This document shows, in pieces, positions 15,285 to 16,843 of a stretch of 64,000 nt of DNA. Each line of letters begins with the position of its first letter. Positions within the stretch are counted from its first letter, which is position 1. The notes beneath the pieces are model-generated. The model was not told the DNA's origin, made no database searches, and saw only the letters and a program-made list of their open reading frames with translations. The position numbers and the translations under genes are program-made. Source of the DNA: Clostridium sp. CAG:609 (GTDB taxonomy: Bacteria; Bacillota_I; Bacilli_A; RF39; UBA660); the NCBI GenBank assembly GCA_000438075.1, contig FR903546.1, forward strand, positions 82,996 through 146,995. Direction: 5' to 3'.

Positions 15285-15313
15285 TTGCATATGAGGGAAA
15301 TTTGTGGTAATAT
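15285..15313 (+). promoter_or_regulatory. promoter of the tRNA pair
   Basis: TTGCAT, a 17-nt spacer, then TAATAT with a TG extension, about 12 nt upstream of the first tRNA. Confidence 0.5.
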
Positions 15314-15325
15314 TAATATTGTCAT

Positions 15326-15402
15326 GGACCTCTAGCTCAGTTGGTTAGAGCCCCCGGCTCATAACCGGGTTGTCGCAGGTTCGAGTCCTGCGAGGTCCAC
15401 CA
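15326..15402 (+). tRNA. tRNA with CAT anticodon, probably tRNA-Ile2 (lysidine type); software may call it tRNA-Met
   Basis: The cloverleaf folds by hand: acceptor ggacctc/gaggtcc, anticodon stem cccgg/ccggg with loop ctCATaa, T stem gcagg/cctgc, encoded CCA. G1-C72 pairing argues against an initiator. C4, C5 and the GGCTCATAACC loop resemble Ile2. Confidence 0.9.
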
Positions 15403-15408
15403 TTATAT

Positions 15409-15493
15409 GCAGGCGTGGCGGAACTGGTAGACGCGTTAGACTTAGGATCTAATGGAAAATTCCGTGGGGGTTCAAGTCCCTTCGCCTGCACCA
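15409..15493 (+). tRNA. tRNA-Leu (anticodon TAG)
   Basis: Acceptor gcaggcg/cgcctgc, anticodon stem ttaga/tctaa with loop ctTAGga, a long variable arm and encoded CCA. Confidence 0.92.
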
Positions 15494-15580
15494 ATTAGTT
15501 TATAATGCAAATTGTTGCATATAATAAAAAATGGGAAATACTTAACTTGCTATGTTGAGTACTTGCCATAAATGTGATTG

Positions 15581-15617
15581 GTACTCAATCTAGTTTATGA
15601 TTGAGTACTATTTTTTT
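15581..15617 (+). terminator. rho-independent terminator after the tRNA pair, overlapping the 3' end of the antisense peptide gene
   Basis: gtactcaat / attgagtac stem followed by tattttttt. Confidence 0.65.
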
Positions 15618-15697
15618 ATAATTAAAATCATCAAGGATATAATTAATAAAATGATGATTATTATTAGAAATATAATTAATAAATCTTTTTTCTTCAT
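15608..15697 (-). CDS. 29-aa hydrophobic peptide, type I toxin-like (MKKKDLLIIFLIIIIILLIISLMILIIKK)
   Basis: It is not in the ORF track because it is under 60 aa. GGAGG lies ~10 nt upstream of the ATG. The peptide is a single TM helix flanked by Lys residues. A consensus promoter lies upstream and a 15-bp inverted repeat brackets the gene. Confidence 0.55.
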   Translation of the reverse strand: MKKKDLLIIFLIIIIILLIISLMILIIKK

Positions 15698-15767
15698 AAT
15701 CTATCAAGCCTCCTTCCTTTTTTAGAAGTTGGCAAGTACTCAACAGTTAAAATTTCCCATGAATATA

Positions 15768-15796
15768 ATTATACTATTCGTAAACATGCTAGTCAA
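15768..15796 (-). promoter_or_regulatory. consensus sigma-A promoter driving the small peptide gene
   Basis: On the minus strand it reads TTGACT, a 17-nt spacer, then TATAAT. Confidence 0.6.
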
Positions 15797-16006
15797 GCGA
15801 ACAATTTGTGAAATTTTAAATCAATCTAAAATAATAAAATTAGTGTTTGACAGTATGTAAAAGATATAATATATTATTAGTGTCATCAGCAATAAAAAGA
15901 TGATTAATATAAGAAAAGTAATTAATAAAAATGAACAAGAAAGTCAATCGAAAATGGTTGATTTTTTTGTATGCTTGATATAGAATATAACCCGAGGTGA
16001 AAAGCT

Positions 16007-16843
16007 ATGAACCAAGGAATAAATGAAATATTAATTGAGTTTGTTAATACTATGATACAAACATTTCCAAAAGATGATTTAGTATTACTAAATAATAATT
16101 TAAAGAAACTAAATATTGTTACAAGAAGTTTTAAGTTATCTAATGTTTTAAAACATGAAAATACCGGAGCACAATGGATACCAGAAAAAAATAGAATTGA
16201 AATATCTTTACAAAACTATAGAAACACTATTAACCATGAACTATTGCATGTTGCAAGTACATATATTAGTGATAATAATATGATTCATTGTGGTTTTTAT
16301 AAATATTTAAATGAACATAGTAACATCGGAGAATCAATTAATGAGGGATATACCCAATACCTAGCAGAAAAATACTTTACTAAGTATCCTATATTAAAAG
16401 CCTATACATATGAAAAACAAATAGCTTCTGCTATAGAATTAATAATTGGAAGAAAATTAATGCAAAAACTATATTTTAATGCAGATTTAAATGGATTAGT
16501 ATTATCTTTAGAGAACTTTGAATCAATCGATAATATATATACATTTTTAAATAAAATGGATTATGTAACAAAAACTAAAAAAGATAAAAGAATAATCAGC
16601 GTATTAAAAGAAATAAATTATTTTGTAACAAGCATGTATCTTAGAAAAGTTATGAAAGAAAATAAAGATATAGACATAAAAGATCTAATAAAAAGAATGC
16701 TTCCATTAATAATGGTTCTTCCTAGTCAAATGACTATAGATAAAGTGGCATATAAAATAAATGATGATAATGAAGTATTTAGTATAATAAATAATGTCTA
16801 TAATGAATTTCAAAACAAATCAACAAAAAATTTTAAAAAATGA
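16007..16843 (+). CDS. hypothetical protein with an HExxH motif (putative zinc metallopeptidase)
   Basis: HELLH, followed ~30 aa later by NEGYTQ (a possible third ligand Glu). No further family recognition. Confidence 0.4.
   Translation: MNQGINEILIEFVNTMIQTFPKDDLVLLNNNLKKLNIVTRSFKLSNVLKHENTGAQWIPEKNRIEISLQNYRNTINHELLHVASTYISDNNMIHCGFYKYLNEHSNIGESINEGYTQYLAEKYFTKYPILKAYTYEKQIASAIELIIGRKLMQKLYFNADLNGLVLSLENFESIDNIYTFLNKMDYVTKTKKDKRIISVLKEINYFVTSMYLRKVMKENKDIDIKDLIKRMLPLIMVLPSQMTIDKVAYKINDDNEVFSIINNVYNEFQNKSTKNFKK

Follow-up and report, generated by a model that had tools for sequence, protein, structure and literature searches.

What is the short open reading frame (ORF) that lies next to a pair of tRNA genes on contig FR903546.1 of Clostridium sp. 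CAG:609, and how could its expression be controlled? The stretch analysed, called the window below, comprises 64,000 nucleotides (positions 82,996 to 146,995 of the contig) of a 1.16-Mb draft genome with 26.6% G+C and the standard genetic code. The original prediction, made from the letters of the window, placed on the minus strand a 29-codon gene for a hydrophobic peptide whose mRNA could pair its 5′ leader with its 3′ end. It assigned the locus to the hok/Fst/TxpA type of toxin mRNAs, translationally locked by long-range pairing, and proposed the trailer of the tRNA transcript as a possible antitoxin. Having compared the locus with its relatives, we consider it likely that it is a type I toxin-antitoxin-like module belonging to a large family, with a tRNA trailer as antitoxin in this genome. 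Of the proposed architecture, the peptide gene and the pairing of the mRNA ends, which covaries, stood; by sequence the locus is no member of the hok, Fst or TxpA families, and folding predictions gave no support for translational locking by the long-range helix.

Pairing of the mRNA ends and constraint on the peptide gene

The minus-strand promoter, leader arm, GGAGG, ATG, 29-codon ORF, hairpin and exact complement of the leader arm are all found where they had been placed (Table 1). Judged by the spacing to the -10 box, the toxin mRNA should start near 15761-15758. The perfect inverted repeat, predicted to be 15 bp long, extends over 16 bp (15553-15568 and 15730-15745) and is the inner part of a longer pairing. 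Beyond it, the outermost 5′ arm (P0-5′, GGGAAATTTTAAC) pairs with GTTAAGTATTTCCC (15546..15533), and altogether about 29 nt of the 5′ untranslated region (5′ UTR) are able to pair with the 3′ UTR of the same mRNA. In the minimum free energy (MFE) fold, the first ~31 nt of the mRNA are paired with its 3′ end. The 15-mer of the repeat occurs twice in the window against 0.04 occurrences expected, and two or more occurrences were seen in 0 of 100 shuffles; a search for it elsewhere in the genome, which had been proposed along with the prediction, gave no further copy within 2 mismatches.

A 218-nt RNA from the locus folds at -57 kcal/mol compared to -30.2 ± 3.9 kcal/mol for its shuffled versions (z = -6.9). 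The 237-nt mRNA reaches -70.4 kcal/mol in the closed form against -40.5 kcal/mol when its 5′ 30 nt are held free, and it is in the latter fold that the mRNA terminator hairpin shows up. The two 3′ arms together with the U6 run make a terminator-like hairpin, and each of them can pair with the 5′ UTR instead. As the 3′ arms pair either with each other or with the 5′ UTR, the 5′ UTR and the terminator are alternative partners.

BLAST searches against related genomes located homologous loci which span the window positions 15515-15778. On the toxin strand they share the order of promoter, 5′ arms, anti-Shine-Dalgarno (anti-SD)/SD element, 20-38-codon ORF, post-stop hairpin, 3′ arms and U-run, and on the opposite strand they carry a convergent TTGACA-17-TATTAT promoter. 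We collected 92 unique units and termed the 63 whose 5′UTR/3′UTR duplex is at or below -26 kcal/mol full modules. Cognate 5′UTR/3′UTR duplexes average -32.6 kcal/mol, compared to -22.5 for non-cognate and -14.0 for shuffled combinations. In the duplexes of individual copies, a continuous 5′ strand pairs with two 3′ arms split by the terminator loop. For P0, these duplex energies and per-copy structures are the evidence, the formal pair count having been made for P1, the pairing of the leader arm with its exact complement.

Across 34 distinct P1 arm pairs, 94.3% of the cells are paired, a share that is biased upward by the extraction of the arms by best complementarity. The double changes are free of this bias: both sides have changed at 8 of the 14 pairs (76 cells vs 26 ± 6 in shuffles), and the covariation score is 0.469 vs 0.245 in shuffles (0/500) and at most 0.11 for slid partners. 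In the toxin sense, G·U combinations outnumber A·C ones by 52 to 11, which argues for selection on the toxin-sense RNA and not on a DNA inverted repeat.

Two models of the unit were built. R1 is a profile of the best-conserved part of the unit and was used for the distribution counts; it is a covariance model built on an RNAalifold consensus with 4 base pairs kept, used as a sequence profile, and it kept so few pairs because MAFFT misaligned the variable hairpins. The second model, R2, on which the evaluation of the local hairpins rests, has an explicit structure and was realigned on 113 distinct copies. In these, the hairpin immediately past the peptide stop codon (H2, a 3′-UTR hairpin when read on the minus strand) shows double changes at 10 of 10 pairs and is 87% paired, and the mRNA terminator hairpin shows double changes at 13 of 13 pairs. 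The covariation of the local hairpins in R2 is 0.371 vs 0.181 in shuffles (0/500). A G·U excess in the small-RNA 5′ hairpin (pair 139/159) was judged to be an alignment artefact of a forced bulge and was left unused. The alternative foldings that had been predicted from a core common to the leader arm and H2 extend to the whole family: pairing between the leader arm and the 5′ arm of its own H2 comes to -11.2 kcal/mol, compared to -6.8 for other arm classes and -4.7 kcal/mol for shuffled arms.

The frame linked to the SD holds a 20-38-codon ORF in 61 of the 63 full modules. Other frames are open over the same span in 17 of 122 sense (14%) and 43 of 183 antisense (23%) cases. Between related peptide genes of equal length, substitutions are distributed over the codon positions as 580/278/911, and single-base codon differences include 591 synonymous vs 353 non-synonymous ones; the pairs compared are not independent, with an unambiguous direction of the effect. 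This pattern indicates that the peptide ORF is evolving as a coding sequence under purifying selection. The 53 distinct peptides belong to several subfamilies (MKKKDLLI..IKK, MYKKDFLI.., MK[TN]KTFIL[KR]VL..IKK, MTKDGIIIGLWL...). Lysine or arginine is present within residues 2-6 in 52 of them. The basic start is followed by an uncharged stretch of 17 residues on average, in most peptides enough for one transmembrane helix, and the C-terminal tail after this stretch has at most 2 residues in 43 of 50 peptides. The window peptide has one predicted transmembrane helix and is basic at both ends. The T-run of H2 is antisense to the last two lysine codons of its ORF; such an overlap with AAA AAA codons may explain the frequent KK ends of the peptides.

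Both the covariation and the coding constraint bear on the possibility that the locus is a miniature inverted-repeat mobile element, whose 5′/3′ complementarity would reflect terminal inverted repeats of the DNA and whose ORF would be incidental. The family is indeed multi-copy and dispersed, its copies are often located at contig ends, and its core is flanked by inverted repeats. However, the arms covary rather than stay conserved, the G·U over A·C excess is seen on one strand, and substitutions in the ORF follow codon positions. Both promoters are conserved and lie outside the repeats; copies within one genome are highly diverged, and the genome studied here has just one. We therefore regard a mobile element of this kind as extremely improbable.

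Distribution and decay of the family

Within the same genus, the element was found in 34 of 56 genomes, with up to 12 copies per genome and tandem arrays of copies about 400-450 bp apart. In the same order it is present in 93 of 151 genomes and 52 of 86 genera; all matches fall within one bacterial family, and a single ~1.1-Mb genome can have as many as 17 copies. None of the 137 genomes from 25 other families of the class carries it. Among named genomes, a pattern scan found the element in gut metagenome-assembled genomes called uncultured Bacilli, Tenericutes or Erysipelotrichaceae and in Candidatus Ventrenecus; the hosts of the element-bearing gut genomes are rabbit, mouse, human, ruminant and chicken. 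A noticeable share of copies is located no more than about 300 nt from contig ends (e.g., G028:C39:129, G148:C14:75, G120:C52:9, G180:C1:40), which suggests that near-identical copies break assemblies. Since copies crowd at contig ends, the copy numbers given here are lower bounds.

In the genome of Clostridium sp. CAG:609 the locus is single-copy. The sole other match, outside the window (G000:C35:23194-23244), is partial, covers the positions 81-131 of the small-RNA model (its promoter end) and is probably a remnant. A degenerate second piece of the peptide ORF is located 246 bp upstream of the gene, in the gap 15840-15972 (15891-15929, 87% identical to 15645-15683), and is probably what remains of a tandem module. 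The plus strand of this gap also contains a TTGACA-17-TATATT promoter (15847-15875, 11/12) and a small hairpin with a T-run (~15945-15972) ahead of the HExxH gene at 16007.

The distribution also bears on a second possibility, that the peptide is a non-toxic small membrane protein, e.g., a regulator or membrane-complex subunit, whose mRNA is tuned by a cis-antisense RNA and which has a normal function rather than one in addiction or defence. Purifying selection on the peptide suits any functional small protein, the peptide has no match to a toxin family, and confinement to one bacterial family is what a lineage-specific housekeeping gene might show. Against this, a genome may have anything between 0 and 17 copies, tandem arrays occur, and 58 of the 151 genomes of the family have none. 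Decay is frequent: reading frames are shifted or cut short by nonsense mutations, leaders are lost and antisense genes are left as orphans. Elaborate silencing and a position in variable regions beside tRNA genes are typical of selfish toxin-antitoxin modules and not of core membrane proteins. A non-toxic membrane protein thus appears unlikely to us.

Several individual copies are decayed. L106 has TGA at a conserved Trp codon, L028 a frameshift; L013 has no ORF, L029 (759) has lost the promoter and leader, and L030 the start codon. An alternative genetic code with TGA as Trp, raised by L106, was rejected because only tRNA-Trp(CCA) is present and treating TGA as a sense codon brings no gain of long ORFs; L106 is a nonsense pseudogene. 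In total, 29 of the 92 units are without a strong 5′/3′ duplex, and most of these lack the peptide gene. Full modules have duplex energies of about -26 to -51 kcal/mol; those of ORF-less copies lie mostly between -7 and -20 kcal/mol. Three orphan copies, L088, L077 (~985) and L081 (~986), each from a different genome, share one location immediately past the terminator of a gene whose product ends in ...HKALEILKENN, which suggests that they are old, retained antitoxin-only loci.

Given the orphan copies, the small RNA might have a function of its own. Taken further, the family could be one of small RNAs with a trans-acting role in the control of other mRNAs or of tRNA-linked processes, the peptide gene being an optional passenger. 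Many of the 29 units without full-module pairing retain the promoter, hairpins and terminator, some orphans follow one and the same gene in each of three genomes, no segment of the unit is better conserved than the small-RNA part, and the units are tightly linked to tRNA 3′ ends in physical terms. But the variable arms covary with the cognate mRNA 5′ UTR, which makes sense only if the toxin mRNA is the main partner, and orphan antitoxins are the expected leftovers of toxin loss. A primarily trans-acting small RNA is, in our judgement, decidedly improbable, and the type I toxin-antitoxin-like module remains the preferred reading.

The predicted antisense small RNA and its probable fusion to the tRNA operon

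About 94 nt of the predicted small RNA (15525-15618) are perfectly complementary to the 3′-terminal part of the toxin mRNA. Of the ORF, this overlap takes in, by way of the terminator T-run, no more than the stop codon and the last 2-3 codons. In the remaining parts, pairing between the small RNA and the 5′ arm of the mRNA is imperfect and leaves out the start codon. Being the complement of the 3′ arms, the small RNA is near-identical to the mRNA 5′ UTR and therefore competes with it. Co-folding of the two RNAs, also proposed along with the prediction, yields -182 kcal/mol vs -107 kcal/mol for the separate folds.

In the family, 83 of 90 units have a convergent small-RNA promoter that matches at least 9 of 12 consensus positions, with 39 occurrences of TTGACA and 49 of TATTAT. 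The promoters of the toxin genes are weaker, with 8-10/12. Read on the plus strand, H2 and its T7 run make up by sequence an intrinsic terminator, which is that of the small RNA.

The window differs from this arrangement on the small-RNA side. No -35 box is present there: the best promoter-like site scores 7/12 and is partly within tRNA-Leu, and two residual -10-like boxes are left (Table 1). Nor is there a terminator between tRNA-Leu and the small-RNA body, the first one downstream being H2 with its T7 run, which thus appears to terminate the tRNA operon as well. In nine related genomes tRNA-Leu is immediately followed by an intrinsic terminator. The window departs from the sequence of its relatives right after ACCAATTAG, and no match spanning the junction of tRNA-Leu and the module was found in any other genome of the genus. 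The hairpin missing from the window is exactly the terminator hairpin that carries the -35 box at canonical junctions. With both the dedicated promoter and the terminator after tRNA-Leu missing, the evident source of the small RNA is transcription that reads through from the tRNA operon. Most likely, it is made in this genome as a 3′ trailer of the tRNA-Met/tRNA-Leu transcript, perhaps with some help from the residual -10 boxes. The candidate tRNA-operon promoter, recognised by eye, scores under the threshold of the consensus promoter scan; it would drive the antisense RNA too. The predicted role of the tRNA trailer as an antisense RNA thus gains from the comparison, in which the same DNA is a dedicated convergent small-RNA gene in relatives and has lost its promoter and upstream terminator in the window.

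A base-pairing RNA produced as the trailer of a tRNA transcript, as implied by the arrangement in the window, has a parallel in 3′ETS-leuZ of E. coli, where a trailer RNA (3′ external transcribed spacer) of a tRNA operon acts as a sponge for other small RNAs. Unlike that case, the arrangement here would result from secondary loss of a dedicated promoter. We know of no 3′ETS trailer of a tRNA operon that acts as a type I antitoxin.

The neighbourhood had been described as accessory, and the DNA 3′ of tRNA-Leu does vary, differing in nearly every related genome; it can be considered a variable hot spot. The genome whose tRNA-Leu is the closest (L133, G003:C8) has at this locus, about 300 bp past tRNA-Leu, only a promoter-plus-5′ fragment of the small-RNA gene left, and the remainder has been replaced.

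Proximity to tRNA genes is a feature of the family. A tRNA 3′ end lies 1-65 nt beyond the small-RNA promoter in 17 of 121 unique copies, and in all 21 tRNA-module pairs, which involve at least eight tRNA types, the tRNA is on the strand of the small RNA. At most canonical junctions the tRNA continues into a short trailer, which is followed by a terminator hairpin with its T-run, then by the -10 box and finally by the small RNA, and at most of them the -35 box sits in the loop and stem of the tRNA terminator hairpin. A second, independent promoterless fusion was found behind tRNA-Met in another genome (copy L123); it belongs to a different peptide subfamily and its ORF is intact. Co-oriented placement directly behind tRNA genes across the family, with a -35 box that is part of the tRNA terminator hairpin, may mean that tRNA operons and type I antitoxins are functionally coupled.

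The trailer GATTGATAGGAAACTCGAACTTTTCGAGT is common to many different tRNAs (e.g., at L127, L128, L126, L012, L022, L075, L074, L137 and L141). It forms a small hairpin without a U-run ahead of the real terminator and could serve as a signal for processing or else mark sites of insertion.

Table 1. Features of the putative toxin gene, the predicted antisense small RNA and the adjacent tRNA genes in the window.
Feature	Position	Strand	Basis or remark
Toxin-mRNA promoter TTGACT-17-TATAAT	15768..15796	-	11/12; best promoter-like site in a 1.2-kb scan
5′-UTR closing segment, two arms	15730..15758	-	read from the sequence; MFE fold
P0-5′ arm GGGAAATTTTAAC	15758..15746	-	predicted first transcribed bases
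P1-5′ leader arm GTTGAGTACTTGCCA	15744..15730	-	sequence
Local anti-SD (CTTCT)/SD hairpin	15709..15728	-	directly after the closing helix; predicted folds
SD AAGGAAGGAGG	15719..15709	-	includes GGAGG 15713..15709
ORF, 29-residue peptide MKKKDLLIIFLIIIIILLIISLMILIIKK	15697..15608	-	ATG at 15697; stop codon TAG 15610..15608
Hairpin H2 with T7 run	15579..15617	+	terminator scan; arms 15581-15590 and 15599-15608
Predicted toxin-mRNA terminator region	15526..15568	-	sequence; putative terminator role
P1-3′ arm TGGCAAGTACTCAAC	15568..15554	-	exact complement of the P1-5′ arm
Terminator loop ATAGCAA	15553..15547	-	sequence
P0-3′ arm GTTAAGTATTTCCCA	15546..15532	-	sequence; followed by U6
U6 run of the toxin-mRNA terminator	15531..15526	-	sequence
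Antisense small-RNA body, candidate antitoxin	15494..15618	+	fold; full-length match to family models R1 and R2
Small-RNA 5′ hairpin ATGCAA-ATTG-TTGCAT	15505-15520	+	fold; followed by an A-rich linker
Small-RNA middle hairpin	15532-15568	+	fold; complement of the mRNA terminator hairpin; followed by terminator H2
tRNA-Met(CAT)	15326-15402	+	tRNA detection
tRNA-Leu(TAG)	15409-15493	+	tRNA detection
Candidate tRNA-operon promoter TTGCAT-17-TAATAT	15285..15313	+	by eye; TGG just upstream of the -10 box
Residual -10-like TATAAT boxes	15501-15506 and 15520-15525	+	no -35 box

Proposed mechanism and its weak points

The likely effect of mRNA closure was modelled on 56 modules. The predicted probability of being unpaired is 0.16 for the SD in the closed mRNA and 0.15 with the small RNA on the 3′ UTR; for the 5′-terminal 6 nt the corresponding values are 0.13 and 0.63. 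According to these predictions, the ribosome-binding site is concealed by the local anti-SD hairpin whether or not the small RNA is bound, and what the long-range helix conceals is mainly the 5′ end. Locking of translation by the long-range helix is thus unsupported. We thus favour a stability switch, in which closure would protect the 5′ end and the small RNA would open it.

Building on the anatomy, coding constraint, covariation, conserved promoters and terminators and the losses in the window, we infer transcription of both RNAs, tRNA read-through, toxicity of the peptide and the following pathway. A toxin mRNA of about 237 nt would code for the 29-residue membrane peptide with its single helix. 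Its first ~29 nt would pair with the two arms of the 3′ terminator region, giving a compact closed RNA with a hidden 5′ end, and the anti-SD hairpin would leave the ribosome-binding site for the most part in a paired state. Once bound, the small RNA would open the closed mRNA and expose its 5′ end, at the same time forming a long perfect duplex. RNase III could then cut the duplex and RNase J degrade the message from the exposed 5′ end, so that no peptide would be made. If the supply of the small RNA stopped, the stable closed mRNA would persist and be slowly translated. Genes for RNase III, for two paralogs of RNase J and for RNase Y are present in the genome.

Several observations weigh against a type I toxin-antitoxin module. 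The five representative peptides compared to Pfam and NCBIfam matched no family at E<=10, giving only noise. Many copies in the family are orphan small-RNA genes without a peptide gene. The mRNA terminator hairpin is only 65% paired in the family alignment. In the window the SD has a predicted probability of 0.68 of being unpaired and is only half sequestered. Finally, the toxin promoter of the window, the strongest among those of the 63 full modules, stands beside an antitoxin gene without a promoter of its own. Such a pairing would be viable only if tRNA read-through or the residual -10 boxes yield enough antisense RNA.

If the antitoxin is the trailer of an essential tRNA operon, both here and independently in L123, silencing of the toxin could be tied to tRNA transcription and processing. 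A fall in the synthesis of tRNA and stable RNA, of the starvation or stringent type, would then lower the antitoxin level and the stable toxin mRNA would be expressed. We offer this as a tentative suggestion, conceivable though short of probable.

Relation to known systems and significance

Searches against databases and literature returned little. At E<=10, only the two tRNAs passed with the Rfam 15 covariance models, the remaining matches being noise. Phage and plasmid collections gave no real match, none of seven peptides was present in an exact look-up in a 15-billion-protein collection, and no papers were found in full-text literature on RF39 and type I toxin-antitoxin systems. The module has two of the generic features of a type I system: a small (<60 aa), hydrophobic, predicted transmembrane peptide from a real gene and a predicted gene for a complementary antisense RNA.

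Among the closest known layouts is that of bsrG/SR4, txpA/RatA, bsrE/SR5 and yonT/SR6 of B. subtilis, in which the toxin and small-RNA genes are likewise convergent and the antisense RNA overlaps the 3′ end of the mRNA (PMC8167048, PMC8594479). Common to both are also a small membrane peptide, a stronger antitoxin promoter (family-wide in our case) and a low-GC host of the Gram-positive type with RNases III, J and Y. In txpA/RatA and bsrG/SR4, the duplex of toxin mRNA and antisense RNA is a substrate of RNase III (PMC8167048). However, no sequence relation and no Pfam or NCBIfam match at E<=10 was found, the module peptides are half the size (24-38 vs 38-59 aa), and the module antisense RNA barely touches the ORF (the stop codon and last 2-3 codons). 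The ~29-nt 5′/3′ closure, in which the mRNA's own terminator is the 3′ partner, is another difference, of which no description for these systems was found in the literature compared, and so is an antitoxin without its own promoter, as in the window.

The par system of the E. faecalis plasmid pAD1 (Fst/RNA II, of the Fst/Ldr group) has convergent promoters and a stem-loop sequestering the SD (PMC7472228). It also has a helix, 5′-UH, that sequesters the extreme 5′ end of the mRNA and contributes to toxin mRNA stability (PMC7472228), similar to what is predicted for the 56 modules (0.16 for the SD and 0.13 for the 5′ end). As in the module, the par antisense RNA leaves the ORF uncovered, and in the peptide a hydrophobic helix comes after a Lys/Asp pair at the N-terminus. 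The PXXXG motif, essential for Fst toxicity (PMC7472228), is found in none of the 53 module peptides, only 3 of which have any proline, and these peptides do not have a long charged C-terminal tail or a match to the Fst_toxin family of Pfam at E<=10. The module has two separate, crossed unidirectional terminators with a 94-nt overlap, whereas par has one shared bidirectional terminator. The DRa/DRb direct repeats over the start codon are absent from the module.

Closure of the full-length toxin mRNA by 5′-3′ pairing is known from hok/sok and from aapA1/isoA1 of Helicobacter pylori (PMC8167048). Because the leader has a conserved second way of pairing, with H2, folding may follow an ordered pathway, as in these systems, and the duplex with the antisense RNA is again a predicted RNase III substrate. 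In hok/sok and aapA1/isoA1, the antisense RNA acts on the mRNA's 5′ region, within which it lies entirely, and is unable to bind the mRNA once this is closed; trimming of the 3′ end activates the mRNA (PMC8167048). The module antisense gene, in contrast, is on the 3′ side, and its RNA is directed at the closing arms, so that the mRNA should be opened by it. Moreover, SD accessibility in the module is predicted to be independent of closure, and there is no leader ORF. Among the Gram-positive type I layouts listed in T1TAdb (PMC8594479), a 3′-side antisense gene is common to all of them and to the module, and an ORF barely overlapped by the antisense RNA is shared with Fst/RNA II and SprA1 (PMC8594479).

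Type I systems have been reported from few phyla and are hard to find by sequence (PMC12390103, PMC8594479). We found no description of the present family, which would add hundreds of unannotated copies, up to about one module per 70 kb, in uncultured gut Bacilli/"Tenericutes" with reduced genomes. The module appears to join two design principles, one of them the 3′-overlapping antisense RNA of the Bacillus style; this combination was not found described either. Its antisense RNA mimics the mRNA 5′ UTR and competes with it for the terminator arms. Natural covariation within the family provides ready-made compensatory mutants for testing RNA folding pathways. In such genomes, the modules would also account for a large number of "empty" gaps between genes and of contig breaks. 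Should the tRNA-fused copy prove functional, nature would offer in it an example of a tRNA-trailer antitoxin, linking growth-rate control to toxin expression.

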